A stretch of DNA of 64,000 bases from an uncultured Candidatus Saccharibacteria bacterium (GTDB lineage Bacteria; Patescibacteriota; Minisyncoccia; Phycocordibacterales; WO2-35-19), in assembly GCA_964589445.1 (NCBI GenBank), contig CAZPQX010000003.1:42133-106132 (forward strand), given 5' to 3'. Positions 3 to 24,120 of the stretch are shown piece after piece. Under the pieces are notes generated by a model, which was not told the DNA's origin, did not search any database, and worked only from the letters and a program-made list of their open reading frames with translations. The translations under genes and the position numbers were made by a program. How positions within the stretch are numbered: the stretch's first letter is position 1; every line of letters starts with the position of its first letter.

Positions 3-176
3 GGAGTCTCACCTGACGGCAGGCTGATGGAAATAGCCGAGCTCCCAAAGAAAACACACCCATTTTTCTTCGGTACTCAATTCCACCCAGAGTTCCTATC
101 AAGGCCGCTCAAGCCCCACCCTATATTTTCTGAGTTCATCAAGGCGGCAGTAGAGAGGGGTAAGGCCAATTCCTAG
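3..176 (+). CDS. pyrG: CTP synthase, C-terminal fragment (5' end lies outside the window)
   Basis: Frame 3 translates to ...[40 protein letters not shown], which matches the conserved glutamine-amidotransferase C-terminus of CTP synthase (FQFHPEF.SRP..PHPLF). Confidence 0.8.
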
Positions 177-306: not shown

Positions 307-551
307 TCTAAATTTGTGGTATCTTGTTTTTGCCGAACTCATCCTCTTTCGGCAAAACCCTTCTCCCTGAGGTTTTCGTAGAACCTTACAGCGTTTGAAG
401 GTAGGGGCAGGCGTCTTCCTCCGAGACACCTAGCCCCTCTTTTTATTTTCCTTATTTTCTGTTATTTTAAGGAGGTTAACATTGGCCCGCCCGCCATCGC
501 TACGCCCGCCTGCTATGTGTTGCTAAGCATTGCGGGCAGGCTCAGGCGTTA

Positions 552-627
552 GCGGGCGGGGAGATCGTCTAATGGCCCGCCCGCAACGCCTTGCTTGCAT
601 GGCGGACGGGTAGGACGACGGTTTCTG
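552..627 (+). pseudogene. tRNA-Gln 5'-half pseudo-copy (acceptor 5' arm, D-arm with a 35-nt GC-hairpin insertion, anticodon stem and loop up to CTG), fused directly to the GIY-YIG start
   Basis: gagatcgtctaatgg[35-nt insert]gtaggacgacggtttctg aligns to positions 1-36 of the intact tRNA-Gln at 874. It diverges with 2 indels and 1 substitution and breaks right after the anticodon, 6 nt before the GIY-YIG ATG. Confidence 0.55.
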
Positions 628-632
628 AAAAT

Positions 633-869
633 ATGAATTACACCTATGTATTAAAAAGTTTAAGGGATAATAAACTTTATATTGGGTGGACGAACGATTT
701 GAAAAGAAGGCTGGAAATGCACAATCTGGGTAAGGTTGACGCTACCAAAAATAGAATTCCGTTCGAAATTGTGTATTATGAAGCTTGCCTTGATAAGGAA
801 AAGGCAATTGAGAGGGAAAAGTATTTCAAGACTGGTTTTGGTAGAAAGTTTTTGAAAAGTAGGATTTAA
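633..869 (+). CDS. GIY-YIG nuclease family protein (UPF0213/YhbQ-like), copy 1
   Basis: MNYTYVLKSLRDNKLYIGWTNDLKRRLEMHN... contains the GIY...YIG motif plus downstream R/E/N residues. The ORF track extends the ORF to 591 through the tRNA-like sequence; the ATG at 633 is preferred. Confidence 0.8.
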   Translation: MNYTYVLKSLRDNKLYIGWTNDLKRRLEMHNLGKVDATKNRIPFEIVYYEACLDKEKAIEREKYFKTGFGRKFLKSRI

Positions 870-873
870 ATAT

Positions 874-944
874 TGCGGGATCGTCTAATGGTAGGACAAC
901 GGTTTCTGGAACCGTCTATCTAGGTTCGAGTCCTAGTCCCGCAG
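874..944 (+). tRNA. tRNA-Gln (anticodon CTG)
   Basis: Cloverleaf: acceptor TGCGGGA/TCCCGCA (U1-A72 as in bacterial tRNA-Gln), D-arm GTCT/GGAC, anticodon stem ACGGT/ACCGT with loop TTCTGGA, T-arm CTAGG-TTCGAGT-CCTAG, discriminator G; CCA not encoded. Confidence 0.9.
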
Positions 945-984
945 CCGCGATTTTTTAACGAGCGAAGCGACTGTAAAAAATCAG

Positions 985-1009
985 CGTCCTGAGCGAAGCG
1001 AAGGGCCAG
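985..1009. repeat. Conserved post-tRNA motif GTCCTGAGCGAAGCGAAGGGC (second copy at 55403-55428)
   Basis: A 21-mer repeated with 1 mismatch downstream of tRNA-Gln and downstream of tRNA-Ser; both copies are preceded by an AT-rich inverted-repeat hairpin. Confidence 0.5.
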
Positions 1010-1024
1010 ATTTTTAATGTCTGA

Positions 1025-1104
1025 AAAAATTTTGAGTCGCGGGAGAGATTCCTGAGTCCCGCAGCACTGATCGCAACTTTGATTGAAAAATTTTGAGTCG
1101 GGGT
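1025..1104. repeat. att-like direct repeat of the tRNA-Gln 3' end, copy 1, plus a truncated copy (1086-1104)
   Basis: aaaattttgagtcgcgggagagattcctgagtcccgcagcactgat; the part tcctgagtcccgcagc matches the tRNA-Gln 3' end tcctagtcccgcagcc. Confidence 0.55.
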
Positions 1105-1150
1105 CCCAGGCCTACAATCAAACTAGCTTGCAGCTTGAGACCCAATAAAC

Positions 1151-1909
1151 ATGAAAGAGCCAGAAATAATTCTAGATCCTAAAGAACTCGATATTTTAAA
1201 ATTGGTTCTTGAGGATATTAAAAAATCTTTGACCTGCGAATTTGCTATTGGTGGATCAATGGCACAAAGAGCTTTATTGCCAGAATTTGGGCAATCAAGT
1301 GAAGCAAACAAAAAGAGTGACATTGATATCGTGCTCTTGGCTGGGTCAAGAGAAAGGTGCCCAGTTTTGCATTCCATAAAAAATTATTTTTATGTTTTGA
1401 GCATTACAGAATCTTTTGATAGTTATTATTTCGGACTTGTACATAAAAAGACAAAAAAGTGGGTTGATTTATTTCCAGTCGCATATAGTCGTTCCTACTA
1501 TAATGTACGAGTAGAAGGAAAAGCTTATAAAGCAGAAACTATCTCAAGCCAAGTATTATATCTTGCTCACGATTTGCTGCGGAGAATAAAAGGCCATAAA
1601 GATGTGCGACAAAAATGGTTCAATAAAATAAAATTTCTATTCTCACAGATTAAAGATGTTACTGATTTTGAAAATGAATTTTCTTCTCATAAACAATATT
1701 TACTTGAAGATCTTCCCAGGGGGGTAAAAATACCTGAAAACGCCCATGAATTTATACAAACGGTTATTGAATGTGTCGCTCCTTTCGTTAAACTTTCTAC
1801 AAAGAGAAATTGGTTCCTCCTATTTAAAAATTATTATAAAGATTCTGTTGTTACCTCAAACGGCATCAAGGTAGATTCTAGGTTTGCTCTACTTCGAACC
1901 TTATTTTGA
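1151..1909 (+). CDS. Pol-beta-superfamily nucleotidyltransferase (minimal NTase fold; possibly aminoglycoside/lincosamide nucleotidyltransferase-like)
   Basis: FAIGGSMAQRALL...SDIDIVLL gives the GS...DxD NTase motif; 252 aa is similar in size to KNTase-type ANT enzymes. Resistance function not established. Confidence 0.5.
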   Translation: MKEPEIILDPKELDILKLVLEDIKKSLTCEFAIGGSMAQRALLPEFGQSSEANKKSDIDIVLLAGSRERCPVLHSIKNYFYVLSITESFDSYYFGLVHKKTKKWVDLFPVAYSRSYYNVRVEGKAYKAETISSQVLYLAHDLLRRIKGHKDVRQKWFNKIKFLFSQIKDVTDFENEFSSHKQYLLEDLPRGVKIPENAHEFIQTVIECVAPFVKLSTKRNWFLLFKNYYKDSVVTSNGIKVDSRFALLRTLF

Positions 1910-1940
1910 GGATGTTTGAAACATGTCGGCAGGAGCTCTT

Positions 1941-1998
1941 AAAAAATTTTGAGTCGGGGGAGAGATTCCTGAGTCCCGCAGTACTTGATTTTTTAAGA
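1941..1998. repeat. att-like direct repeat of the tRNA-Gln 3' end, copy 2
   Basis: aaaaaattttgagtcgggggagagattcctgagtcccgcagtacttgattttttaag; a tail-only copy lies at 2446-2466 and a degenerate copy at 5356-5410. Confidence 0.55.
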
Positions 1999-2035
1999 TT
2001 ATGAGAGCATAATTAGTAACAGGAAAGGGGGGTTC

Positions 2036-2302
2036 ATGTCGACTATCATGGGTCGCAAAAAAGAACCACTTAGTATTGAAAATATAAACGAGATTCTCAG
2101 AGGGTCCTATGGAGTCGAGGTTCGAGAGTGCCAAGGTGGCACCGCTCGAGTTTCGCACTTTTTGAATCCTGAAAGACAGTGGTGGGTTGATGTCAGTTCT
2201 CTTTTTAGAGAGGATGAAGTTCCTACCAAACAAGAAGTCTCAAAAAGATTAAACAAGCAGATTCCTGAGCGCAAGGCATATATCGGCGCGCGTTGCATCT
2301 AA
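2036..2302 (+). CDS. Hypothetical protein (88 aa)
   Basis: ORF with a strong SD (aggaaagggggg) upstream; no recognisable motif. Confidence 0.45.
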   Translation: MSTIMGRKKEPLSIENINEILRGSYGVEVRECQGGTARVSHFLNPERQWWVDVSSLFREDEVPTKQEVSKRLNKQIPERKAYIGARCI

Positions 2303-2498
2303 ATTAGTTGCCATGTTCTTCTAAAATAGTTCGTCTGTATTAATGTAGTTAGTAACACACAAGAGGTCAAGCCTCCAGAAGCATCCATCCAGCAGGTTCG
2401 GGTGTTTTTATTTGTCTAAAATAGTTTCAACTTCATACCAGATAGCCAGCACTTGATTTTTTAAATAAATATTATAGATTATTTTGTAGGAGAACAGA

Positions 2499-2696
2499 TT
2501 GGAAAAGCCAAACAAAATGATTCGTGTGACTCTTGACCTCATCCAAGAGGACTACAACCTCTTGGAAGGTTTAGGCGGCATAAAAGCCGTGGCGCTTAGA
2601 AAGGGCATTCGGCTCTTGGACCAACTTCGTCGAGGGGAGGTTTTCCTTCATACACAGAATGGGGACAAGATTCCCACGGAAATTGTCCTCCCTTAA
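2499..2696 (+). CDS. Small hypothetical protein (65 aa; possible DNA-binding)
   Basis: ORF with an SD (gtaggag) upstream; start is TTG at 2499 or ATG at 2517. Confidence 0.35.
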   Translation: MEKPNKMIRVTLDLIQEDYNLLEGLGGIKAVALRKGIRLLDQLRRGEVFLHTQNGDKIPTEIVLP

Positions 2697-2801
2697 TGTA
2701 CTCAACCGCTCACACAAACAGTCTTGCTGACTCGTTTCGGTGGGCTGTTTTTGTTTGTAAAAAATGATTAAAGTTGAATGTCAAAATGATATAATCCAAA
2801 T

Positions 2802-3437
2802 ATGAAAATAAACTTTATTTATAATCAAGACAAAGATATAGACTGTTTACTGAGTAAAGGCCCTGGCTCCACTAATCAACCAGGAAGTATGACAAAGCCT
2901 TACGAATCTCTACTCCTTTTTACTTCAGACATAAATAATAAAGAGAATGTCAGAGAATTTGTAAGAAAATATATTAGAGAAAATAATATAGATATAGAAA
3001 AAAATAAGAATGAAATAGAGAATAATTGGAATCTAATTTCTGGAGAGTTTAATAGAAGAGCTGAAGAAATATTTGGGATAATAATAGAAGATGAGGTAAA
3101 TGCATACCTGACAATTACAGGAAGGCACCCTTATAATGTAGGGAATAAATACTTTTATGTATCAGCCGAAAAGAAAAATGTAAATAAAAATATAATGCAT
3201 GAATTATGGCATTTTTATACTTGGTATAGGTTTGGAGATTTTAATAAAGTTGACCCTGTTAGATATAACGACGCGAAGGAGTCACTGACGGCAATACTAA
3301 ATATAGTATTTCGGGATCTTATGGACGGGGGATATGATAAAGGGTATTCGCAACATCAAAATCTAAGAAATATAGCGATTGATACTTGGGACAAAACCAA
3401 AGATATTGGTGTGGTCTGGAATGAGCTGATCGTATAA
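2802..3437 (+). CDS. HEXXH-motif protein (putative Zn metallopeptidase, ImmA/IrrE-like?) in an AT-rich island
   Basis: NIMHELWHFYTW carries an HExxH motif; the ORF is very AT-rich relative to its flanks. Confidence 0.4.
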   Translation: MKINFIYNQDKDIDCLLSKGPGSTNQPGSMTKPYESLLLFTSDINNKENVREFVRKYIRENNIDIEKNKNEIENNWNLISGEFNRRAEEIFGIIIEDEVNAYLTITGRHPYNVGNKYFYVSAEKKNVNKNIMHELWHFYTWYRFGDFNKVDPVRYNDAKESLTAILNIVFRDLMDGGYDKGYSQHQNLRNIAIDTWDKTKDIGVVWNELIV

Positions 3438-3513
3438 ATTATTAACGTATTTCCCCAGATGGATAATTTGATGCGATATCTTTAATTTTGTGTACTTGCA
3501 TTTAAAACCTAAA

Positions 3514-3549
3514 TATGTTATACTATATAAAGAATCATTCGCCACATTA
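3514..3549 (+). pseudogene. Remnant of a GIY-YIG gene C-terminus (VILYKESFATL)
   Basis: Matches the C-terminal VLKYNESFATL of the downstream GIY-YIG copy at both protein and nucleotide level. Confidence 0.45.
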
Positions 3550-3619
3550 ACTTTTGGGGGTAAGGTGGCCCCAAGAGCTAGGCCCCAAAGGCCAAAGTCC
3601 CGAGTGAATTCTCCACCTG

Positions 3620-3659
3620 ATTGGGCCGCCGGAAATTCCAGCGGCCCAATACTTTTTGG
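3620..3659 (+). terminator. Rho-independent terminator (perfect 10-bp stem attgggccgc/gcggcccaat followed by T-run)
   Basis: attgggccgccggaaattccagcggcccaatactttttgg. Confidence 0.6.
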
Positions 3660-3665
3660 TACAAT
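3660..3665 (+). promoter_or_regulatory. -10 box TACAAT, 7 nt upstream of the GIY-YIG copy 2 ATG (near-leaderless)
   Basis: tacaatagtacacATG. Confidence 0.4.
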
Positions 3666-3672
3666 AGTACAC

Positions 3673-3960
3673 ATGAAGCGGACAAGTGAATCTACGAAAT
3701 ATTTTGTTTACATCCTCGAATGTGCAGACAAGTCTCTCTATGTCGGCTGTACCAATAATCTAGAAAAAAGAGTTCACGAGCACAACAATTTGAAATCGGG
3801 TGCACACTATACAAAAATCCGAAGGCCTGTGGTTTTAAAATATAATGAATCCTTCGCTACCTTGCTTGAGGCGAGAGGTAGGGAGGCCGAAATAAAGGGA
3901 TGGGTAAAAAGTAAAAAAGTAGCACTTATAGAAGGTAAAGAAAATCTCCGTAAATATTGA
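3673..3960 (+). CDS. GIY-YIG nuclease family protein (UPF0213/YhbQ-like), copy 2
   Basis: MKRTSESTKYFVYILECADKSLYVGCTNNLEKRVHEHN...; near-identical paralog of the 8894 copy. Confidence 0.85.
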   Translation: MKRTSESTKYFVYILECADKSLYVGCTNNLEKRVHEHNNLKSGAHYTKIRRPVVLKYNESFATLLEARGREAEIKGWVKSKKVALIEGKENLRKY

Positions 3961-4019
3961 AAAGTTTGATTTTTATTGTGAAATAATGTAAATTCACTAT
4001 GGAAATTGTTAGAGCTTAA

Positions 4020-5225
4020 TTGCTCGTTTTGACAATACCACGACTACAAAGAAAGGTTGAAGCAAAAATGGTTAGCAGTTCTAAGAAGGCGGAGCTAGAC
4101 ATGCGGCGTGAGGCTGTTCATGTCCTAGTGTCCTTGGGGCTGTCGTATCAAGACATTGCCACCGCTATAGCCGTAGATATCGGCTCGGTGGTGAACGATG
4201 TGAAGAAGATCGCTCCCGTTACGATGAGGTTTGAGGTTGAAGGGCTGACCGGCCCACAGCGTCGCGACAAGGCGTTTAATCACTCCTTGCGCGAGTGGCT
4301 TTTGGTTAGGACTGAGAGCTACTCCAAGAGGCTTGGTGTTGATCGGGATGTGATGGACTGTATTGAATCCGCACTCTCAGTTTGCCTCGACATGAGGCGA
4401 CTCAACGGCATCGCCGAAGGTGTCGTCGCATTCGTCAATACATTGCTTTACCCGGTTGATCCGCCAGAGTATCTGCCTTACCGGCATTTACTCAGGGCTA
4501 TCTTTGGAGAACCTACCAAGCTTAAGGAGAAGAAGCCCTATTCGGCTCTGTTGTGTCACTTTGGATATTTCATTCATGGCTCGGGTTTTGAGTTTACCCG
4601 CGATTCCATCGCAGAGCAGCTTGCTACGCTGGCCATGGAAGAGTTCCGGCAAAACTTTCGCGCCCCACTCGGCGAGAGTGTTAAAATCGCTTTTGAGGAA
4701 GCTCTCAAGACAATAGACAAAAGGGAGGCAGAGGTCCTCGATCTCCGCTTTGGTCTTTCGGGGAAGAGACTAACCCCCGGTGAACTTCGTGGTCGTTTCG
4801 CTGTGACTGATGAGAGGATCCGACAAATCGAGGCAAAGGGATTGCGCAAGCTTCGTCACCCCGAGCGTTCTCGTCGTCTCCGTCCTTTTATCGAGTCTCC
4901 CTTCAGTTTTACCCAAAGGACACTCGATGAGATGTTTGTCCGTCCGGCCCCTATTCCTATTGAGGTTTCGGATACGGCCAAGCTTCTTTCTCAGGAAATC
5001 GAGGAGCTTGAGCTATCAACCCGTTCCTACCATAGCCTTAAGGCTATGGGCGTTCATACTGTCGGCGACCTCGTGCAGAAAACGGAGAGAGAAATGTTGT
5101 CCACGGGGATTCGCTTTGGGTTTGGGCGCAAGTCTTTCAATGAAGTAAAGGAGATTTTGCGTTCCATGGGGCTCTCATTTGGCATGAAGCTTGAGGACGG
5201 TGTTTTGAAGCGACCGGCTGACTAA
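4020..5225 (+). CDS. Chimeric transcription-factor-like protein: N-terminal HTH, sigma-70 region 4.2, and an RNA polymerase alpha C-terminal-like domain
   Basis: [56 protein letters not shown] matches sigma-70 region 4.2 almost residue for residue. The following [63 protein letters not shown] matches RpoA alpha-CTD ([27 protein letters not shown]...LASRGLSLGMRLE). No sigma region 2 is recognisable. Start is probably ATG at 4068. Confidence 0.7.
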
Positions 5226-5452
5226 GTCTGATCGTGGTATCAATGCCTGTGCTTGTTCTTTGGAGCAGGCACGGGCTCTCATCAAAGTTTTTTCTAAAAG
5301 AGAAATTTTTGATGAGATTTTTTCTAAAAAAGATTGAAAAAGGAGGGGGCTGCCTGAAAATTTTTGAGTTGAGGAAAGGGGAGGGATTCTTGAGCCCTGC
5401 AGTATTTGACATGCTAGTATATATTATGATATAATATAAGAAGAGGTTAATA

Positions 5453-5737
5453 ATGAAGAAGCTTTTCCTGCTCAAGAATTTGGGTCAGCCTACTCATGGC
5501 GAGACCCGTGCCATGCTCGTTTCCGCAGTCGACGAACTTGATGCACGAAACTGGGCCGGGTCGACGCCGCATGTCCCCAGCCACAACACGGGGGATCCCG
5601 AAGGGATCAATGGGTATGGGGACGAGGGTGCAAATGTGTGGAGAGATTCCACAAAATCATCTTGCACTGAAATCGCGATCTCATTCTCCACCAATTTGGG
5701 GTTCGGTGTAGTCCTAACGGACTACATCTACGCTTAA
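5453..5737 (+). CDS. GC-rich small hypothetical protein (94 aa)
   Basis: -10 TATAAT at 5432-5437 and SD aagagg upstream; GC-rich body; no recognisable motif. Confidence 0.35.
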   Translation: MKKLFLLKNLGQPTHGETRAMLVSAVDELDARNWAGSTPHVPSHNTGDPEGINGYGDEGANVWRDSTKSSCTEIAISFSTNLGFGVVLTDYIYA

Positions 5738-5914
5738 CTTGCCGCAGTACGAATTTAAAGGCACGACGTAACCAACCGTCGGCCTTTTCTGTTTGTAAAA
5801 ACAAAAGAGGATATATTCAAAATTCGGTAGGATAGAAAACTACTTATTGATAAGTTAGGATTACTAAAATCAGTAAGGGTTGAATATTGAGTAATAAAGT
5901 TATATTTTGTCTGT

Positions 5915-7009
5915 ATGAACAAGTTGTTCCAATCAGAAAAATATTTAAACTATCTAAAAAGAAGGGCTAGAAAAGAGAGAAAAGCAAAGCTAAGATATGA
6001 GTTATATATAAAAGCTAAGAACATACTTAAGTATAAAAAGACTATACCAACGTTCAGGCATCTGCGGGATTGGCCAGTTAATATAGAGGCTCCTGAAATT
6101 TTTTCACTCATTAAAAATAGTGAGGAGACAATATCTTTTATAAATAAAATAGGAGAAAATTTTAGAAAAAGAAATAAGGTTTTTATTCTTCTAAATAAGG
6201 TTGAAGAAATAGATTATGATGCAATTGCTGTATTGCTTTCCGTCATGATTCTATTTAGGACGAGTCATATACCTTTTAATGGAGATAGGCCAGTTGCGGA
6301 GTTGGCAAAAAATAAACTTGATGATTCTGGTTTTTTTGATGAATTATACAAGAAAGACAGAAGAGGGATGTCTTATGTTATAGGAAAAGACAAACAAATA
6401 TTTTCAAGTTCTGAGAAAAAGGTTGAACCATCTTTGGGTTTACCTGTTATGAAATATGCTTCCGAATTTATATGGGAAGAAAAAAGGATTTGTAAGGGTT
6501 TGCAAAGAGTATTGCTTGAGTTGATGCATAATACTCATAATCATGCCGGAGGTTATTTGAGTAGGGGTATGGAAAGGTGGTGTTTTTTTATAAATCACAA
6601 CAAAGATAAAAAAGTTGTTGAATTTGTTTTTGTTGACTATGGAGTGGGAATATTCAATAGTTTGAATAAAAAAGAAAAAGGAAATAAATGGTATGATTGG
6701 CAAAATAAACTAAAGAGTGTTTCTGGGTTACCTATAAAAATGACAAATGAAGAAATTTTAAAAAAACTATTAAATGGAGAAATGCATGTGACTGTTACGG
6801 GAGAAGATTTTAGAGGGAAGGGTTTGCCAGGAATTAAGCAAGTTTTAGATAGAAATCAAATAAGTAACCTCTGTATTATAAGCAATAACACCTATGCAGA
6901 AGTGTCAAACAATAAGTACAAATTATTAAGACAAGATTTTAGTGGAACTTTTATTTATTGGGAACTGTGCTATTCTAATAAAAATCATCCGTGGACAATA
7001 AAATTATAA
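5915..7009 (+). CDS. GHKL/HATPase_c-type ATPase (histidine-kinase-like ATP-binding fold)
   Basis: N-box LLELMHNTHNHAGG, G1 VDYGVGI (DxGxG), G2 GEDFRGKGLPGI; AT-rich. Confidence 0.5.
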   Translation: MNKLFQSEKYLNYLKRRARKERKAKLRYELYIKAKNILKYKKTIPTFRHLRDWPVNIEAPEIFSLIKNSEETISFINKIGENFRKRNKVFILLNKVEEIDYDAIAVLLSVMILFRTSHIPFNGDRPVAELAKNKLDDSGFFDELYKKDRRGMSYVIGKDKQIFSSSEKKVEPSLGLPVMKYASEFIWEEKRICKGLQRVLLELMHNTHNHAGGYLSRGMERWCFFINHNKDKKVVEFVFVDYGVGIFNSLNKKEKGNKWYDWQNKLKSVSGLPIKMTNEEILKKLLNGEMHVTVTGEDFRGKGLPGIKQVLDRNQISNLCIISNNTYAEVSNNKYKLLRQDFSGTFIYWELCYSNKNHPWTIKL

Positions 7010-7332
7010 AAATATCAATAGCTAAAGATTTTTCGGTGACACCAGGAGCTCGCTACAAGAAAGAGGGTGATTTTTCAGGTGAAGAATTTAGGGATAAAAT
7101 CCTAGAACCTGCTTTTTTGAGGGCAAAAAAAGAAGGTTGTAAGTTGGTTGTAGATTTAGATGGAACAATTGGGTACGGGACAAGCTTCTTAGAGGAAGTT
7201 TTTGGTGGTCTCGCAAGAACGCAGGGCCCAAATGAAGTCTTTTCCGTATTAGAAGTTTTATCTACAGAAGAAGAATATTTAAAAGAGGACGTTCTTGGGT
7301 ATATAAAAGATGTTAAAGTGGACAAATCTTAA
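6991..7332 (+). CDS. STAS-like (DUF4325-type) small protein, partner of the GHKL ATPase
   Basis: GEEFRDKILEPAFLRAKKEGCKLVVDLDGTIGYGTSFLEEVFGGL fits the G..FR..I.....V.LDF.GV....SF.DE..G.L pattern; overlaps upstream gene by 19 nt; start uncertain. Confidence 0.45.
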   Translation: MDNKIIKISIAKDFSVTPGARYKKEGDFSGEEFRDKILEPAFLRAKKEGCKLVVDLDGTIGYGTSFLEEVFGGLARTQGPNEVFSVLEVLSTEEEYLKEDVLGYIKDVKVDKS

Positions 7333-8893: not shown

Positions 8894-9142
8894 ATGTATA
8901 AAGTTTATATCCTCGAATGTGCTGACCAAACTTTGTATGTCGGCTCGACCAACAATTTGGAGAAGCGGCTCGTAGAGCACAATACTTCTAAGAAAGGTGC
9001 TCACTATACGAAAATAAGAAGGCCAGTGGTTTTGAGGTATTCTGAAGACATGCCCAACCTCTCCGCCGCCCTAAAAAGGGAACTTGAGATAAAAAGATTA
9101 AAAAGACAGGAGAAGCTAGCTTTGATTGAAAAAACTGGGTAA
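8894..9142 (+). CDS. GIY-YIG nuclease family protein, copy 3
   Basis: MYKVYILECADQTLYVGSTNNLEKRLVEHNTSKKGAHYTKIRRPVVL is near-identical to copy 2. Confidence 0.85.
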   Translation: MYKVYILECADQTLYVGSTNNLEKRLVEHNTSKKGAHYTKIRRPVVLRYSEDMPNLSAALKRELEIKRLKRQEKLALIEKTG

Positions 9143-17375: not shown

Positions 17376-19889
17376 ATGAAAAATAAAGAAGCAAAAGCAC
17401 GAATAAAAATAAACAAACTCCTTGAACAAGCAGGTTGGCGTTTTTTTGATAATGAAAAGGGACAAGCAAATATTTCGCTTGAGCCGAATGTAAAACTTAC
17501 CCAAAAGGACATTGACGCTTTTGGTGAGGATTTTGAATCTACAAAAAACGGATTTATTGATTTTTTATTGCTTGATGAAAAAGGTTTTCCGTTTGTTATT
17601 TTAGAAGCCAAAAAAGAATATAAAAACCCGCTCGACGGCAAAGAACAGGCGAGAAAATACGCTCATACCGAAAACGCCCGCTTTGTTATTCTTTCAAACG
17701 GCAATCTTCACTATTTTTGGGATTTAGAACGAGGTGATCCTGAAATCATCACCGAATTTCCGACACAAGAATCTTTGAAACACAGACAGGATTTCAAACC
17801 AGATAATCAGCGTTTGGCAGACGAAGAAGTCAGAGACGATTATATTGCACTTACGCAAAACCCGAATTTCAAAGATGATCCTCGCTACAAACAAGAAGAA
17901 ACGCGAGAGCAATATCTTTGGGAAGAAAATTTGCGAATTTTGCGACCTTATCAGCTTAAAGCAATACACGCTTTGCAAAAATCCGCCGAAGCTGGAAATG
18001 ATCGTTTCCTTTTTGAAATGGCAACGGGGACAGGAAAAACGCTTATTTCCGCCGCCGTCATCAAACTGTTTTTGCGAACAGGCAACGCCAAAAGAATTTT
18101 GTTTTTAGTGGATCGCTTAGAATTGGAAGATCAAGCGCATAAAAACTTTGTCCGCTATTTGAGCAATGATTTTTCATCAGTTATTTACAAACAAAACCGC
18201 GATGACTGGAAAAAAGCGGAGGTTGTCATTTCAACAGTTCAAAGTCTTTCGGCGCAAGATAAATACAAAAAACTTTTTTCGCCGACTGATTTTGATTTGA
18301 TTATCGCCGATGAATCACACCGCGCAATCGGCGGAAACTCGCGCGCAGTTTTTGAATACTTTATCGGCTACAAATTGGGCTTAACTGCAACACCGAAAGA
18401 CTATTTGAAAAATGTTGATCCACAGAAACTTTCACAAAAAGACCCGCGCGCTTGGGAAAGACGACAACTCTTGGACACTTACACGACATTCGGCTGTAAA
18501 AATGGCGAGCCAACTTTCCGATTTAGCTTGCTTGACGGCGTAAAAGAAGGATTTTTGATCAATCCTATTGTTTCAGACGCGCGAACCGACATCACCACCG
18601 AACTACTCTCGGAAAAGGGCTACGCGGTTATGGTTGAAGATGAAGACGGCACAGGAAGCGAAGAAACATTTTTCCAAAAAGATTTTGAAAAGAAATTCTT
18701 TTCCGAAAAAACAAATCGCGTCTTTTGCCAAACACTCATTGAAAATTCTCTCAAAGACCCAATAAGCGGAGAAATCGGCAAGACCATTGTGTTTTGCGTG
18801 AGCCAAAAGCACGCTTCCAAAATTACCCAAACGCTCAACCAAATGGCGAGCCAACTTTGGCCCGACAAATACAATTCTGATTTTGCGTTGCAAATAACTT
18901 CAAACATTGCCGATAGCCAGCAATTCACAATCAACTTCGCAAACAATAACCTAAACGGACACACCAAGTTTTTGGAAAACTATAAATCCAGCAAAACGAG
19001 GGTTTGCGTAACTGTTGGAATGATGACCACGGGCTACGACTGCCAAGACATTTTGAATCTTGCGCTTATGCGCCCGATTTTCTCGCCGACTGATTTTATT
19101 CAGATCAAAGGACGAGGAACAAGAAAATTCACCTTTGAATATATGGACGAATACGGCGAAAAGCACAAAAAGCCAAAAGACCATTTCAAATTTTTTGATT
19201 TCTTCGCTAACTGCGAATATTTTGAAGAAAAATTTGATTATGACGAGGTTTTGCAACTGCCTATCAAGCAAAAAGGAACAGGCGGAGAAGGACCAGTCGG
19301 TGTTGACATTGATGAATTTGAAACTTTCAATCCCGATAAAGTAAAAACTCTTACGGAAACACCTGTCGGAATAGAAGGGATGAAAGTTGATCGCAAACTA
19401 TTTGAAAAAGCTCGCGAAGAATTGCAAAAAGACACTGAGGTAAAATCTGCCGTGGAAAACGAGCAATGGGACAAAGCGGTGCAAATTATGCGCGACAAAT
19501 ACGAAGACAAACCGCAATTATTCTTGAATCTTGAAAAAATCCGCAAGAGCGAAAACCTTGATCGCCGTATTTCTTGGCGCGAATTCTTGGAACGAGCCTT
19601 CGGCTTGATTGACGTTTTCAAATCCAAAGACGAAAAACTGGAAGAAGAATGCGAAAAGTTTATTTCAATTTACAAGCCCGAAAGCAAATATGTTCCGCAT
19701 ATCAAAAACTATCTGAAAGCGTATGTTACGGATGAAAAATTCCGCGACATTATCAACAACAAACATTTCGCCGACTTGAATGTTTATGCGGGGTTTACAA
19801 TGGCGGAATTTAAGGAATTAAACGGATGGCGGGAAACTGTGCCTGAATATGTGAAAGATTATGTTCCCGTTAATCAGTTTATGAGGTAG
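17376..19889 (+). CDS. hsdR: Type I restriction enzyme R subunit (HSDR_N PD-(D/E)xK nuclease plus SF2 helicase)
   Basis: N-terminal FIDFLLLDEKGFPFVILEAKKE (D..EAK nuclease); helicase motif I MATGTGKT; motif II DESHR. Confidence 0.75.
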   Translation: MKNKEAKARIKINKLLEQAGWRFFDNEKGQANISLEPNVKLTQKDIDAFGEDFESTKNGFIDFLLLDEKGFPFVILEAKKEYKNPLDGKEQARKYAHTENARFVILSNGNLHYFWDLERGDPEIITEFPTQESLKHRQDFKPDNQRLADEEVRDDYIALTQNPNFKDDPRYKQEETREQYLWEENLRILRPYQLKAIHALQKSAEAGNDRFLFEMATGTGKTLISAAVIKLFLRTGNAKRILFLVDRLELEDQAHKNFVRYLSNDFSSVIYKQNRDDWKKAEVVISTVQSLSAQDKYKKLFSPTDFDLIIADESHRAIGGNSRAVFEYFIGYKLGLTATPKDYLKNVDPQKLSQKDPRAWERRQLLDTYTTFGCKNGEPTFRFSLLDGVKEGFLINPIVSDARTDITTELLSEKGYAVMVEDEDGTGSEETFFQKDFEKKFFSEKTNRVFCQTLIENSLKDPISGEIGKTIVFCVSQKHASKITQTLNQMASQLWPDKYNSDFALQITSNIADSQQFTINFANNNLNGHTKFLENYKSSKTRVCVTVGMMTTGYDCQDILNLALMRPIFSPTDFIQIKGRGTRKFTFEYMDEYGEKHKKPKDHFKFFDFFANCEYFEEKFDYDEVLQLPIKQKGTGGEGPVGVDIDEFETFNPDKVKTLTETPVGIEGMKVDRKLFEKAREELQKDTEVKSAVENEQWDKAVQIMRDKYEDKPQLFLNLEKIRKSENLDRRISWREFLERAFGLIDVFKSKDEKLEEECEKFISIYKPESKYVPHIKNYLKAYVTDEKFRDIINNKHFADLNVYAGFTMAEFKELNGWRETVPEYVKDYVPVNQFMR

Positions 19890-19900
19890 CCAAAAATATT

Positions 19901-21769
19901 ATGCTTGATCAGACTACAAAACGAAAACTAGACTCTGCCCGACAAATTCTTGTCGGCAAAGTGCCAGACCCCAAGGCGCAAGTTGAGCAAATCACGACTG
20001 CGCTTGTCTATAAGTTTATGGACGATATGGACAAGGAATCGGAAGAGCTTGGCGGAGAGGCGAAATTTTTTGCCAACAGTTTTTCACAGTATTCTTGGAC
20101 GAAACTTATGAACAACAAACTTTCTGGGCAAGAACGCCTTGATTTATATGTTCAGGCAATTACGAATATGTCTAAAAACCCGCATATTCCGCAATTGTTT
20201 CGTGATATTTTCAAAGGCGCGTTTTTGCCATACAACGATCCTCGCACACTTTCGCTATTTCTCAAAGAGATCAATGAATTTAATTACGAACATAGCGAAA
20301 ACTTGGGCAATGCTTTTGAATATTTGCTTTCTATTCTCGGAAGCCAAGGCGACGCGGGACAATTCCGCACACCTCGCCACATTATTGATTTTATAGTTGA
20401 AGTGGTTGATCCAAAAAAGAACGAAACAATCCTTGATCCCGCTTGCGGAACGGCTGGATTTTTGATTTCTGCATACAAACATATTTTGAGGCAGAATAAA
20501 GAAAAATCTCTCACGCCAGACGAAAAATTGAAATTGATGAATAATCTTGCGGGCTATGATATTTCGCCCGATATGGTGAAATTGGCGCTCGTAAATTTGT
20601 ATTTACATGGCTTTCCAGATCCAAAAATTCACGAATATGATTCACTCACAAGCGAAAAGCGGTGGGGAGAAACATTTGATGTAATAATGGCAAACCCGCC
20701 CTTTACAACACCAAAAGGCGGAGTTAGTCCACATTCAAGGTTTAATGTAAGCGTGAAAAGAACTGAGGTTTTATTTGTTGATTATATTGTCAATCATTTA
20801 AATATTTCTGGACGCTCTGGTATTGTTGTTCCCGCTGGAGTGGTTTTTAAAGATGATTCTGGTTATGTCAAAATAAGAAAAAATCTTATTGATAGCAATC
20901 TACTCTGGGCTGTAATTTCGTTGCCTGGCGGAGTTTTTAACCCATATTCCAATGCTGAAACAAGCATTTTGTTTTTAGATAAAAAAGTTGCCCAAAAAAC
21001 AAGTAAAATTTTGTTTGTAAACATCAACAATGATGGTTATAGCCTTGGGAACACAAGAAATCCCATTAAAGATAATGATCTGCCTTCGGCTTTGGAATTA
21101 TTGAAAAATTATGCTAATGGGAAAAATATAAACAGTAGCCAAGCGTTATTTGTTGAAAAAGAGGATATAAAAAATAATTATTACATTCTTGTCGGCGATA
21201 GATATAAAAAGAATGGTGATAAAAAAACAAAAAATCATCTGCCGTTGAGTAAGCTTTTATTGCGGAATAAAACGCCAATAAATATTGAGAGCAATATTGT
21301 GTATAAAAGAGCAACCATAAAACTTTATGGGAAAGGTCTTTCAATAAGAGATGAGGAGATAGGGTCAAAGATAAATACAAAAAAACAATTTCTTATCAAA
21401 AAAGGTCAGCTACTACTTTCAAAAATTGATGCCCGAAATGGAGCGTTTGGAATAGTCCCTCAAGAATTAGACGGGGCAATTATTACTGGAAATTTTTGGG
21501 CTTTTGATATAAATGAAAATTTTGTAAACAAAGATTATTTGTCTTATCTGCTCTCTTCTAAAAAATTCTATTCAATTTGTAAAGATGCCAGCTCTGGGGT
21601 TACAAACAGAAAATACTTAAACGAAACTAAATTCTTGGCAATGGAAATTGAATTACCAAAAATTGAAGAGCAGAACAAATTGATAACGGAATTAAATGGT
21701 TACAAGAGTAAAATTGAGGAGTTGCAGAAAGAGCTTGATTCCAGAATAGCAAAAGAATGGGATGTATAA
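19901..21769 (+). CDS. hsdM: Type I RM fused methyltransferase-specificity protein (HsdM N6-adenine MTase plus a single HsdS-type target-recognition domain)
   Basis: GQFRTPRHI...DPACGTAGFL (SAM binding) and NPPF catalytic motif. The C-terminal ~190 aa (GAFGIVPQELDGAIITGNFWAF...) resemble an HsdS half-TRD. Confidence 0.7.
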   Translation: MLDQTTKRKLDSARQILVGKVPDPKAQVEQITTALVYKFMDDMDKESEELGGEAKFFANSFSQYSWTKLMNNKLSGQERLDLYVQAITNMSKNPHIPQLFRDIFKGAFLPYNDPRTLSLFLKEINEFNYEHSENLGNAFEYLLSILGSQGDAGQFRTPRHIIDFIVEVVDPKKNETILDPACGTAGFLISAYKHILRQNKEKSLTPDEKLKLMNNLAGYDISPDMVKLALVNLYLHGFPDPKIHEYDSLTSEKRWGETFDVIMANPPFTTPKGGVSPHSRFNVSVKRTEVLFVDYIVNHLNISGRSGIVVPAGVVFKDDSGYVKIRKNLIDSNLLWAVISLPGGVFNPYSNAETSILFLDKKVAQKTSKILFVNINNDGYSLGNTRNPIKDNDLPSALELLKNYANGKNINSSQALFVEKEDIKNNYYILVGDRYKKNGDKKTKNHLPLSKLLLRNKTPINIESNIVYKRATIKLYGKGLSIRDEEIGSKINTKKQFLIKKGQLLLSKIDARNGAFGIVPQELDGAIITGNFWAFDINENFVNKDYLSYLLSSKKFYSICKDASSGVTNRKYLNETKFLAMEIELPKIEEQNKLITELNGYKSKIEELQKELDSRIAKEWDV

Positions 21770-24120
21770 TTTATCGAAACATGAAGCTGAAAAGTATCAA
21801 AAAAATCAAAGGTTATAAATCGTTCCAAGATTTTGATTGGCAACCTTTTTTGAATAATGAAACTTTTCATGATGAAGTAAATATTCTTTATGGCGAAAAT
21901 GGAAGTGGTAAAAGCTCAATTGCCAACCTTTTGAAAAGTGTTTCAGAAAATAAAGATTTTGGTAAGTACATACCAGCCGAAGCGTGTTTGGTATTTGATG
22001 ACGGCGAGAAAAAATATCCAGTAAATAACGATTGGGACAATAAAATTTCAAAAGGTTCCATTTTGTTTTTTGATCGCGAATTTATTGATAAAAATGTTCA
22101 TTTGGGACACAGACGAGACACAACGCAAAACGGACAAGAACAAGAATCGGGCAAGATGATTATCGAGTTTGATAGCGACGCTATCAATTTGCGTGGTGTA
22201 AGAGATACGGCTAAAAAAGCGAAAGACGAACAAGACCAGAAAATTAAAGATTTCAATTCTGCGAATAAGGATTCATTGGCTTTTGCTTTGACTGACAATG
22301 AACAGCCGTTTTTCAAAAACTACAAAGATAAAAGTGAAGAAGAAATCAAAACAGCAAAACAAACATTGGGAAAGGAGAAAAAAGAAGCCGAAAAGAGCCT
22401 TGAAACAGATCAGGGATTGCAAAAGAAAGTCGCCAGTATCCAAAGAGACATAAAAAGCTTGCCGACAGAAGAAGTTGAAATTTCCTTTTCTGATGAGAAA
22501 ACATATCAGGCAATTTTTGATTTTGACCTAAAAGAGCAGGCAAAAATAGAAGCCGAGCAGACTTTGATTGATAAAGTTAAATCGCATAAATCATTCTTTG
22601 AAACTGGTTTTGAAATTAGAAAGACACACCAAAATCAGTGTCCTTTTTGCCAATCTGAAAATGAAGAAGCAGGAATCAAAAACATCGTTGATCTATACGA
22701 GCAAATTTATGACACGACATATAAAACACAAGTGCATCAATTTGAAAAAGATAAACAAGTCCTGCTTGATGAAATTTCACAAATTACACAAGCCGTTTCC
22801 GATTTTGATTTGAACAGTATTTTTCTTGAACTTAAAAAATTAGACCAAAATTACAAAATACCAAATATCTACTCTGTTGATGACGAAAAAACATACAAAA
22901 AACCAGCGGTGAAAGAGATAAAAGAGTTGAGTGGTAAAATAACGAAACTTGCGAAGCCAAGCAAAGAGGACATCAAAGAGCTTTATGCAAAAGTAAAAAC
23001 TGAATTTGAGGCGATTGAAGCATTTTTCAAGTCAATTAGTGATTTTGTAGATCAAAAGAACAAGCTCATTTCTAAATTCAAATCCGACAACACCGATGAA
23101 AAACTTCAAGCACGAATTGTTTCAAGCGGTAAAAGAATTGCTGAAATTGAAAAAGAGTTGGTTTTTATAAATGGAAACAAGATAAAGGAACAACAAAAGA
23201 AAGAGCAAAAAGAAAAGGAACAAAAAGCTTTGCAAGATGTTTTTGCTACGCTAAAAACAGAATACGATACAGCCTTAAAAGAATACGAAGATCATTGTTC
23301 GACAAAGGCTTTTTCAAACCTTTTGTCTAAAATTCAAGAATATTTCAAAAATTTCAATTTTAGTTTTAGGCTTGAACCAAAAACAGCACCAACAGGAAAC
23401 AAAACCGAATTTCCGTTTGCGTTCAAGGTTTTGGATTTTGAGGGAAACGAGCGAGATTTCAAAGAGGGACTTTCCGAGGGGGAAATTCAGGTTTTGTCCC
23501 TTTGTTTTTTCTTTGCGTTTCTTGATATACAAAAAGATAAAAAACAAAAGGTGCTTGTTTTTGACGACCCGATCACGAGTTTGGATAATAGCAATTTGAG
23601 TTGTCTCGTTGATTTAATCGCCGAAGAGCAAAAAAACTTTTCACAAATTTTTGTTTTTTCTCACCACAGAACCTTTTTCAAATTTTTAAGAAAGCGATTT
23701 GATAAAAATTGCCATGAATACAATCTAATCCGAAACAAAAAAGAATTTGGCGGAAGTTTTATTTGCAAAAGTAAATCTGATAAATTTTTGGCTAAGCTGA
23801 AAAATTTTGAAACTGACTTGGCGAAAATTCCGCCAGCAAGTCTTGATGTTGAATTGAAAGTCGTTGAATATGGGCAATATTTGCGATATGAGGTTGAAAG
23901 GCATATCAAAAATAATTTATTGCACTGGAACGCAAATGATTTCCCAACGGCGATTGATGGTGTAAAATGTAATAAAGAGATAGATGACGGCGATTTGGAC
24001 AAAATCAAGCAAATATATTCGTTTTGCAACTGGACGACTTCGCATGTTGATGTAGGAGATGATCATGGACTTGGACAACTGAAAACAAAAATCGCCGATT
24101 TTGTAGCAATTGTTAAATAG
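21757..24120 (+). CDS. RloC-like Rad50/SbcC-type ABC ATPase with a coiled-coil zinc hook; candidate anticodon nuclease
   Basis: Walker A GENGSGKSS; long Lys/Glu coiled coil containing a CPFC (CxxC) hook; signature LSEGEIQVLSL; Walker B/D-loop VLVFDDPITSLD; H-loop FSHH. The C-terminal ~150-aa domain has R-x3-E...H candidates (LRYEVERH). Positioned right after hsdR/hsdMS as in restriction-linked RloC. Start may be ATG at 21781. Confidence 0.55.
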   Translation: MGCIIYRNMKLKSIKKIKGYKSFQDFDWQPFLNNETFHDEVNILYGENGSGKSSIANLLKSVSENKDFGKYIPAEACLVFDDGEKKYPVNNDWDNKISKGSILFFDREFIDKNVHLGHRRDTTQNGQEQESGKMIIEFDSDAINLRGVRDTAKKAKDEQDQKIKDFNSANKDSLAFALTDNEQPFFKNYKDKSEEEIKTAKQTLGKEKKEAEKSLETDQGLQKKVASIQRDIKSLPTEEVEISFSDEKTYQAIFDFDLKEQAKIEAEQTLIDKVKSHKSFFETGFEIRKTHQNQCPFCQSENEEAGIKNIVDLYEQIYDTTYKTQVHQFEKDKQVLLDEISQITQAVSDFDLNSIFLELKKLDQNYKIPNIYSVDDEKTYKKPAVKEIKELSGKITKLAKPSKEDIKELYAKVKTEFEAIEAFFKSISDFVDQKNKLISKFKSDNTDEKLQARIVSSGKRIAEIEKELVFINGNKIKEQQKKEQKEKEQKALQDVFATLKTEYDTALKEYEDHCSTKAFSNLLSKIQEYFKNFNFSFRLEPKTAPTGNKTEFPFAFKVLDFEGNERDFKEGLSEGEIQVLSLCFFFAFLDIQKDKKQKVLVFDDPITSLDNSNLSCLVDLIAEEQKNFSQIFVFSHHRTFFKFLRKRFDKNCHEYNLIRNKKEFGGSFICKSKSDKFLAKLKNFETDLAKIPPASLDVELKVVEYGQYLRYEVERHIKNNLLHWNANDFPTAIDGVKCNKEIDDGDLDKIKQIYSFCNWTTSHVDVGDDHGLGQLKTKIADFVAIVK

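Follow-up and report, generated by a model that had tools for sequence, protein, structure and literature searches.

Islands stacked 3' of one small RNA gene have been described in Dehalococcoides, whose ssrA islands are bounded by 20-bp direct repeats of the 3' end of that gene, with the crossover in or next to the T-loop (PMC3146451). A conserved motif that does not align with the RNA gene stands to the left of each repeat, and next to attL the reverse strand encodes a serine recombinase of ~540 aa; in some islands the integration module is missing (PMC3146451). Tandem placement at the 3' end of a target gene is also known from cis-mobilizable elements (CIMEs), for example relatives of ICESt1 and ICESt3 in Streptococcus, which have kept attL and attR, have lost the genes for integration and transfer, and can be mobilised when a related element supplies the recombinase (PMC5704250). 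SegB of T4, finally, is a homing endonuclease of the GIY-YIG type whose gene lies in a cluster of tRNA genes (PMC2330249). Here we describe an array of small cassettes behind an intact tRNA-Gln (CTG) gene of a Patescibacteria-type genome, contained in a stretch of 64,000 nt (the window, on which all coordinates are based), and the Dehalococcoides ssrA islands are the closest described system to it. Patescibacteria genomes are tiny, and gene exchange among them is little understood.

One cassette of this array, cassette B, is missing from another strain at a precise junction. We consider it fairly probable, with moderate confidence, that cassettes at this locus are gained and lost site-specifically and in trans at att-like sites, and that the whole forms a tandem, integrase-less (CIME-like) array anchored at tRNA-Gln.

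A strain-variable cassette between composite units

The array runs from tRNA-Gln and its flank through unit 1, a half-unit, cassette A (0.9 kb), unit 2, cassette B (3.4 kb) and unit 3 to a 94-aa gene and a possible further relic (Table 1). Its G+C content ranges from 0.31 to 0.51, which we count in favour of accretion. Every unit joins two halves at a boundary that reads GGGGAG, or CGGGAG in the case of unit 1. The right half (AGATTCCTGAGTCCCGCAG(Y)ACTTGA..) resembles the tRNA from the T-loop to the 3' end and continues into sigma-70-type promoter motifs. The left half, (T/G)AAAAAATTTTGAGTCG.. (AAAATTTTGAGTCG..GGGGAG), is non-tRNA sequence that is conserved in each unit; a preliminary description of the window, which had drawn attention to the repeats, did not include it.

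The evidence that these units are sites of rearrangement comes from L130, a contig from Logan assembled from short reads (loci and contigs of relatives are labelled L001-L137). It comes from a closely related strain, was retrieved with a variant of the cassette A protein (252 aa) that is 99% identical, and is seen in 9 samples; L131, from another run, is identical to it. Runs SRR28520273 and SRR28520275 represent the L130-type allele and SRR14271372 the window-type allele. Positions 1-973 of L130 correspond to window positions 990-1962 except for 11 substitutions, all inside the 252-aa gene, and positions 968-1378 match 5378-5788 exactly. The two matching stretches overlap solely in the 6 nt GGGGAG, such that L130 has a single hybrid unit, in which unit 2 supplies the left half and unit 3 the right half, and is without the exactly 3,421 bp that separate them in the window. 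The preliminary description had staked its reading on insertion/deletion polymorphism at the repeats, and this is what the contig displays.

We also considered L130 as an assembly artefact and rejected this candidate, given its recurrence across samples and the mere 6 nt that units 2 and 3 share at the join. Logan assemblies are built with k = 31. An overlap of 6 nt cannot cause a mis-join in an assembly built from k-mers so much longer, and both alleles are therefore real. As a separate observation, the substitutions between L130 and the window are confined to 420 nt (1371-1792) of the 252-aa gene, with none in the other ~960 aligned bases; this clustering points to homologous recombination, over a short patch, with an allele that had diverged.

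The direct repeats of the tRNA-Gln 3' end reported in the preliminary description were recovered by a repeat search. Their core, GATTCCTGAGTCCCGCAG, is present at 1047, at 1964 and, with 3 mismatches, at 5385, and nowhere else in the 64 kb (3 observed against 0.03 expected; none of 100 shuffles of the window reached 3). CCGCAGYAC likewise occurs three times in the window, all inside the array, against 0.43 expected, and a 21-nt left-half family is found at 1022, 1083, 1939 and 5354. Units 1 and 2 are 94% identical over 49 nt (1020-1068 against 1937-1985). Taken by halves, units 1 and 2 are 92% identical on the left, where units 2 and 3 reach 66%; on the right, units 1 and 2 show no difference up to GCAG, as would follow if one and the same att half were carried by related cassettes, and units 2 and 3 are ~80% alike over their first 26 nt.

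That the repeats copy the tRNA 3' end holds in a narrower form than first proposed. In local alignments tested against 2000 shuffles, none scored as high against the tRNA 3' end as units 1 and 2. The resemblance amounts to 10 nt exact (AGTCCCGCAG), or 17 of 19 nt with one indel, and GATTTTTTAA follows the tRNA-like 10-mer only in unit 2 and at 2455. Aligned alone to the tRNA of the window, unit 3 and the half-unit do not stand out from shuffles; they are linked to it only via units 1 and 2.

The units also have the appearance of promoters. Each lies upstream of a gene on the + strand, with an A/T tract and TTGAGT in the left half and -35/-10 matches in the right half that sit 40-90 nt upstream of start codons; the motifs of unit 2 precede the 88-aa gene and those of unit 3, which include a TG extension, the 94-aa gene. 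Judged from these motifs, the right halves carry the putative promoters of the downstream genes, and the units are predicted to be regulatory as well.

Other identities for the unit were tried and rejected. A reading as structured RNA, as tRNA minihelix or as attC-like fold fails in that single-stranded DNA folds of the units (z -0.2 to -1.1) are no better than those of shuffles. Unit 1 holds both strands of the acceptor stem (GCGGGA..TCCCGC), a stem that is not kept in units 2 and 3, and an Rfam search returned only the tRNA and no family for the units. A genome-wide promoter or a motif of the repetitive extragenic palindromic (REP) type was dismissed on the confinement of the unit, within the 64 kb, to 1.0-5.4 kb. 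A perfect 10-nt inverted repeat around unit 2, CTTAAAAAAT/ATTTTTTAAG, is not found in the other units, and we take it as an A/T-rich chance occurrence. For a Xer-dependent element (IMEX or dif module), whose dif-like site spans 28 bp with two inverted 11-bp arms around a 6-8-bp spacer, the observations point both ways: the units share a 6-nt core, and the arms that flank it, TTTTGAGTCG and AGATTCCTGAG, are not inverted repeats.

Table 1. Features of the tRNA-Gln locus in window coordinates
Feature	Coordinates	Strand	Basis or remarks
pyrG 3' end (CTP synthase), left anchor	27-176	+	tblastx: pyrG then tRNA-Gln in many Patescibacteria loci (L032, L036, L020, L026, L029, others)
Two GC-rich hairpins and 5' pseudo-copy of tRNA-Gln (563-630)	484-630	+	repeat search, 91%; 0/2000 shuffles
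GIY-YIG no. 1, 78 aa, between 5' pseudo-copy and intact tRNA	633-869	+	Pfam PF01541, E 2.8e-16
tRNA-Gln (CTG), intact	874-944	+	ARAGORN; Rfam 61.2 bits
tRNA 3' flank, conserved	945-1019	+	GAGCGAAGCGA at 960 and 991
Unit 1	1020-1075	+	left half 1020-1045, tRNA-like right half 1046-1075; identical in L130
Half-unit, left half joined to TCCCAGGCC	1083-1112	+	repeat search
Cassette A cargo, 252-aa nucleotidyltransferase-like protein	1151-1909	+	G35-S, D57xD59 and D106 conserved
Unit 2, attL-like junction of cassette B	1937-1998	+	core GGGGAG 1957-1962; right half TTGATT-17-CATAAT
Cassette B, 3,421 bp, strain-variable	1963-5383	+	present in window, absent in L130 strain
88-aa open reading frame (ORF), cassette B	2036-2302	+	ORF list
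Partial right half	2446-2466	+	2446-2459 matches GCAGYAYTTGAYWT with 1 mismatch; tail copy CCAGCACTTGATTT
65-aa ORF, cassette B	2499-2696	+	ORF list
211-aa HEXXH protein, cassette B	2802-3437	+	ORF list
GIY-YIG no. 2, cassette B	3673-3960	+	Pfam
Sigma-r4/alpha-CTD protein, 385 aa, cassette B	4068-5225	+	Pfam Sigma70_r4 and RNA_pol_A_CTD
Unit 3, attR-like junction of cassette B	5354-5412	+	core GGGGAG 5378-5383; right half TTGACA-18-TATAAT; diverged
94-aa ORF right of unit 3	5453-5737	+	directly after hybrid unit in L130
Possible further right-half relic (CTTGCCGCAGTACGAATTTAAAGG)	5738-5760	+	CCGCAGTAC at 5742-5750; weak evidence

Related tRNA loci and the gene content of the array

The order pyrG-tRNA-Gln is kept across many Patescibacteria while the genes 3' of the tRNA differ, in agreement with the integration hotspot proposed in the preliminary description. 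Among 81 ORFs 3' of tRNA-Gln in 48 Patescibacteria loci, two encode large serine recombinases (L069 and L044), on the reverse strand and 2.5-3.9 kb downstream of the tRNA. A comparison with GTDB genomes in search of an empty site yielded distant relatives only (L020, L032, others), whose downstream genes differ as well and whose divergence is too great for breakpoints to be placed. Different genera have kept the flank immediately 3' of tRNA-Gln: the window and L059 (minus strand, ~4780-4800) have ATTTTT(T)AACGAGCGAAGCGA in common, and GTCCTGAGCGA.. also occurs in L073 (6629-6735), in a long hairpin before a GIY-YIG gene. On the other side of the tRNA, the gap from pyrG ranges from ~50 nt to 3.2 kb across Saccharibacteria and Parcubacteria (L020, L026, L029, L032, L036, L041, L043, others), and the upstream side is therefore a variable site too. 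Independent short-read contigs end at window positions 531 (L001, within the GC-rich hairpins) and 990 (L130, within the repeated GAGCGAAGCGA), where these hairpins and repeats, or strain variants, disturb assembly.

The cargo of cassette A has 5 close homologues, and its family is rare, numbering 45 representatives in 1.84 billion proteins. The 252-aa protein has no Pfam match, weak PDB matches only, no match in PHROGs or PADLOC and no phage, plasmid or viral relatives; its AlphaFold model (predicted local distance difference test, pLDDT, 53.7) was not used. A few relatives match NTP_transf_5 and DUF6036 weakly, and these matches, together with the conserved G-S, DxD and third D, make 'nucleotidyltransferase (NTase)-like' a reasonable label, much as the preliminary description had it.

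The two closest homologues (66% and 49% identity; L125, 426-1286, and L123, 2154-3033) lie 31-43 nt after an intact tRNA-Gln in unrelated neighbourhoods. In about 5 of 13 contexts, other lineages included, a family member lies 28-45 nt 3' of a tRNA gene (Gln three times, including the relic in the window, Trp once and Ser once), and family contexts have a common leader motif, GC(A/T)(C/T)GAGA; more distant members do not adjoin tRNAs. In the window, the stretch from the half-unit to the start codon aligns with the tRNA-Gln 3' end and spacer of L125, and the half-unit is therefore probably the worn 3' end of a tRNA that once adjoined the 252-aa gene.

An independent example of such boundaries is provided by L133, at tRNA-Trp, and L136/L137, at tRNA-Ser, where the NTase-like gene (376-1125 in L133, 2750-3625 in L136) follows the tRNA by 28-35 nt. 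Despite the different tRNAs, the genes of L133 and L136 are 88% identical in DNA. Their homology starts at the last 6 nt of the tRNAs (CCGCCA) and reaches ~110 nt beyond the stop codon, where it ends in a relic, ..GGTTCTAGYCCGAGACGGCCCGCMA, that is like the 3' end of a tRNA, such that the same boundary logic, a tRNA end on the left and a tRNA-like relic on the right, appears to apply. Just beyond the relic of L136, on the opposite strand, lies a 561-aa large serine recombinase with Resolvase, Recombinase and Zn_ribbon_recom domains; an HsdR-like gene is found beyond it.

A further structure, on the 5' side of the intact tRNA, was likewise absent from the preliminary description. In this 5' pseudo-copy, tRNA positions 6-18 recur at 563-575 (13/13 nt) and positions 17-35 at 609-627 (18/19 nt), and the D-loop is interrupted by a GC-rich hairpin of 35 nt (576-610; CCCGCCCGCAACGCC..GGCGGACGGG), upstream of which stands a second, similar GC-rich hairpin; the region 484-630 folds with z = -3.2. 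An identical hairpin, CCCGCCCGCAACGCC..GGCGGAC, sits at a different tRNA position within the 5' pseudo-copy of L059 (Vogelbacteria; 5215-5355, minus strand), a locus with several tRNA-Gln 3' fragments in both orientations. L083 (Giovannonibacteria) has the layout 5' fragment with GC-rich hairpin (2885-2995), GIY-YIG gene, intact tRNA-Gln and, 57 nt on, a 3' fragment, and its GIY-YIG protein, in the matching position just upstream of tRNA-Gln, is a homologue of GIY-YIG no. 1 at 51% identity. The hairpin may be a mobile element of the small palindromic type or, alternatively, a leader that is conserved. These layouts point to a second process acting on tRNA-Gln in these bacteria, one that, by analogy with T4 SegB (PMC2330249), may be linked to homing endonucleases. 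Altogether, three small GIY-YIG genes occur within 9 kb (633-869, 3673-3960 and 8894-9142); nos 2 and 3 are paralogues (YILECAD..) and are similar to a GIY-YIG gene of L073 that lies 100 nt 3' of tRNA-Gln.

Pfam matches bear out two further cargo genes named in the preliminary description, the GIY-YIG gene and the sigma-r4/alpha-CTD protein of cassette B. In the latter, Sigma70_r4 covers residues 212-264 and the alpha-CTD residues 301-365, and the N-terminal 200 aa are without a family; the r4 part also matches PADLOC MzaA (E 1.5e-11). Further along the window, a gene pair with G+C 0.31 (5915-7332) encodes a STAS-like protein with DUF4325 (PHROG 5816) and, overlapping it, a 364-aa protein that has no Pfam family (PHROG 3364, E 1e-33); the pair has the look of an accessory module of two genes. 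At 17376-24120, a type I restriction-modification cluster (HsdR-like; HsdM fused to an S domain) is followed by an AAA_13/SMC-like ATPase.

Explanations for the cassette polymorphism

In the explanation that we favour, the array 3' of tRNA-Gln would consist of tandem small cassettes that encode no integrase and are split by att-like junctions of ~55 nt. The right half of a junction would descend from the last ~20 nt of a tRNA-Gln gene and continue into the promoter of the next gene, and the left half would belong to the end of the preceding cassette. Recombination within the 6-nt core at the half boundary would add or remove cassettes, as exemplified by cassette B. The hybrid unit of L130 would accordingly represent the unoccupied site, GAGTCGGGGGAG joined to GGATTCTTGAGCCCTGCAG, and the attP-like site of cassette B would combine the left half of unit 3 with the right half of unit 2, giving a predicted circle junction of GAGTTGAGGAAAGGGGAG joined to AGATTCCTGAGTCCCGCAGTACTTG. 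The enzyme would most likely be a site-specific recombinase supplied by another part of the genome or by a helper element, given that in relatives this position beside tRNA genes is held by large serine recombinases; mobilisation in trans by the recombinase of a related element may be proposed by analogy with L136, L069 and L044. We infer the direction of the event (insertion or excision), the catalysis in trans and the type of recombinase. Were the recombinase to act in trans, the cassettes would be cis-mobilizable remnants accreted at the tRNA, and, with att-like sites and no recombinase, they would fit the definition of cis-mobilizable elements (PMC5704250). The successive accretion at tRNA-Gln suggested in the preliminary description has gained support from the precise strain indel and from relatives with recombinases at like sites; its enzymatic mechanism is one that we infer.

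Several observations weigh against this explanation. No Phage_integrase, Resolvase or transposase family was detected by Pfam in the 60 ORFs scanned across the whole window, as the preliminary description had already noted for tyrosine and serine recombinases. Only one polymorphism has been observed, and look-ups with the 88-aa, 94-aa and GIY-YIG proteins returned the two known arrangements and no further alleles. Neither an excised circle nor an attP form was seen, and the unit pattern is absent from the searchable collections: a degenerate 24-mer of the unit had no exact match in viral or metagenome contigs, and none of 119 tRNA-Gln loci of GTDB genomes contains the unit, such that it was found in no other genome there. 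The identity of the repeats to the tRNA is short and decayed and includes an indel. The GGGGAG core of the units is without the dyad symmetry that surrounds tyrosine recombinase core sites. The two reconstructed sites (attB-like and attP-like) are ~70-80% alike; attB and attP of large serine recombinases are normally dissimilar, and the likeness therefore counts against the explanation as well. Finally, a short-homology deletion at GGGGAG would give the same hybrid product.

Such a deletion is the basis of an alternative that we regard as unlikely, if to be taken seriously, in which the units are diverged promoter-bearing intergenic repeats and slippage or illegitimate recombination at GGGGAG, independent of RecA, deleted the segment that L130 lacks, with no site-specific recombinase at work today. 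The junction block common to both units is just 6 nt, the right halves have good -35/-10 matches at promoter-like distances from the start codons, and the recombinase-free ORFs and the single polymorphism are what this would predict. Yet the longest identical block of units 2 and 3 is TTTTGAGT (8 nt), and the junction lies at GGGGAG instead. A deletion of this kind also leaves unaccounted for why two similar units flank cargo, why their right halves resemble the 3' end of a tRNA, and why the same boundary logic recurs in L133 and L136 at different tRNAs and beside a serine recombinase. If the units were purely regulatory, a shared UP-element/-35 module or an operator, for example for the sigma-r4/alpha-CTD protein, with no role in rearrangement, then the A/T tract and TTGAGT of the left half, the -35/-10 motifs of the right half and the + strand gene downstream of every unit would all find a place; the breakpoint of the indel lies inside the units, however, and L130 contradicts this as an exclusive explanation, which we consider highly improbable also in view of the absence of units elsewhere in the 64 kb, of an Rfam match and of a fold better than shuffles. 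A regulatory role can coexist with site-specific cassette exchange and is insufficient alone.

Homing offers another route, in which GIY-YIG endonucleases would cut tRNA-Gln or the unit in a naive genome, repair of the double-strand break would copy neighbouring DNA (intronless homing), and imprecise repair would leave partial tRNA copies. T4 SegB sets a precedent (PMC2330249), and the local setting is suggestive: three GIY-YIG genes occur in 9 kb, no. 2 lies inside the 3,421-bp segment, no. 1 stands between the 5' pseudo-copy and the intact tRNA as its counterpart does in L083, with the 3' fragment 57 nt after the tRNA, and L073 has its GIY-YIG gene 100 nt after tRNA-Gln. We nevertheless think it very unlikely to be the cause of the polymorphism: homing would give a precise insertion without similar ends, whereas the ends of cassette B jointly form a unit-like site; cassette A is bounded by units and carries no GIY-YIG gene; and cleavage by these endonucleases is a prediction.

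It is tempting to go beyond site-specific exchange in a known kind of array and to speculate that the NTase-like gene and its neighbours represent undescribed miniature, often single-gene cassettes that would insert at the 3' ends of tRNA genes (Gln, Trp, Ser) via the 6-nt core, forming an integron-like, tRNA-anchored array served in trans by large serine recombinases. In its boldest version the NTase-like protein itself may help to target tRNA 3' ends. We hold this reading to be distinctly improbable. In any case, the locus documents that a defined 3.4-kb cassette is gained or lost between strains at a site derived from a tRNA, within an array that has no recombinase of its own, and it suggests that tRNA-Gln, and in relatives tRNA-Ser and tRNA-Trp, are places where very small cargo modules dock and are served in trans. 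The rare NTase-like family and the sigma-r4/alpha-CTD fusion are thereby marked as mobile accessory DNA and not as core genome. The exact junction sequences given above are testable predictions for read-level searches and recombination assays.

Comparison with known systems

Classical tRNA-targeted prophages and islands employ tyrosine integrases, with the crossover in the anticodon loop, the T-loop or the 3' end. Like them, the locus has an intact tRNA at one end and displaced copies of its 3' end downstream; it differs in having no tyrosine integrase, in its inexact repeats and in a unit that extends leftwards into non-tRNA sequence. Of the usual marks of an island, the intact tRNA at the boundary, the 3'-end direct repeats and an empty-site allele are present, and an element-encoded integrase is absent. 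With integron arrays it shares small, mostly single-gene cassettes in one orientation, separated by short sites, and strains that differ by whole cassettes. However, IntI, attI and Pc are all absent, putative promoters come with the cassettes themselves, and the units, unlike attC, are without inverted R/L boxes or a GTTRRRY/RYYYAAC pair and fold no better than shuffles. T4 SegB and the locus have in common small GIY-YIG genes embedded at a tRNA locus with partial tRNA copies around; in the window the endonuclease activity and its target are predicted from the genes, and homing leaves the unit structure of the cassette ends unexplained.

The likeness to CIMEs is closer. Att-like sites are retained, with units flanking cassettes A and B, the arrangement is tandem at the 3' end of the target, and genes for integration and transfer are absent. 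In contrast to CIMEs, no helper element and no conjugation remnants were seen, and mobilisation in trans is only presumed. As for the Dehalococcoides ssrA islands, the window shares with them the 3'-end repeats, the crossover in or next to the T-loop, the extra motif to the left and the stacking, and relatives (L136, L069) have a reverse-strand serine recombinase. It differs in its target, tRNA-Gln and not the transfer-messenger RNA (tmRNA) gene, in its much smaller cassettes (0.9 and 3.4 kb), in the lack of an integrase in any island, in its more decayed repeats and in its Patescibacteria-type host. The locus thus belongs to a known kind, that of tRNA-anchored tandem islands with integrase-less members, here in an understudied phylum and in an unusually miniature form.

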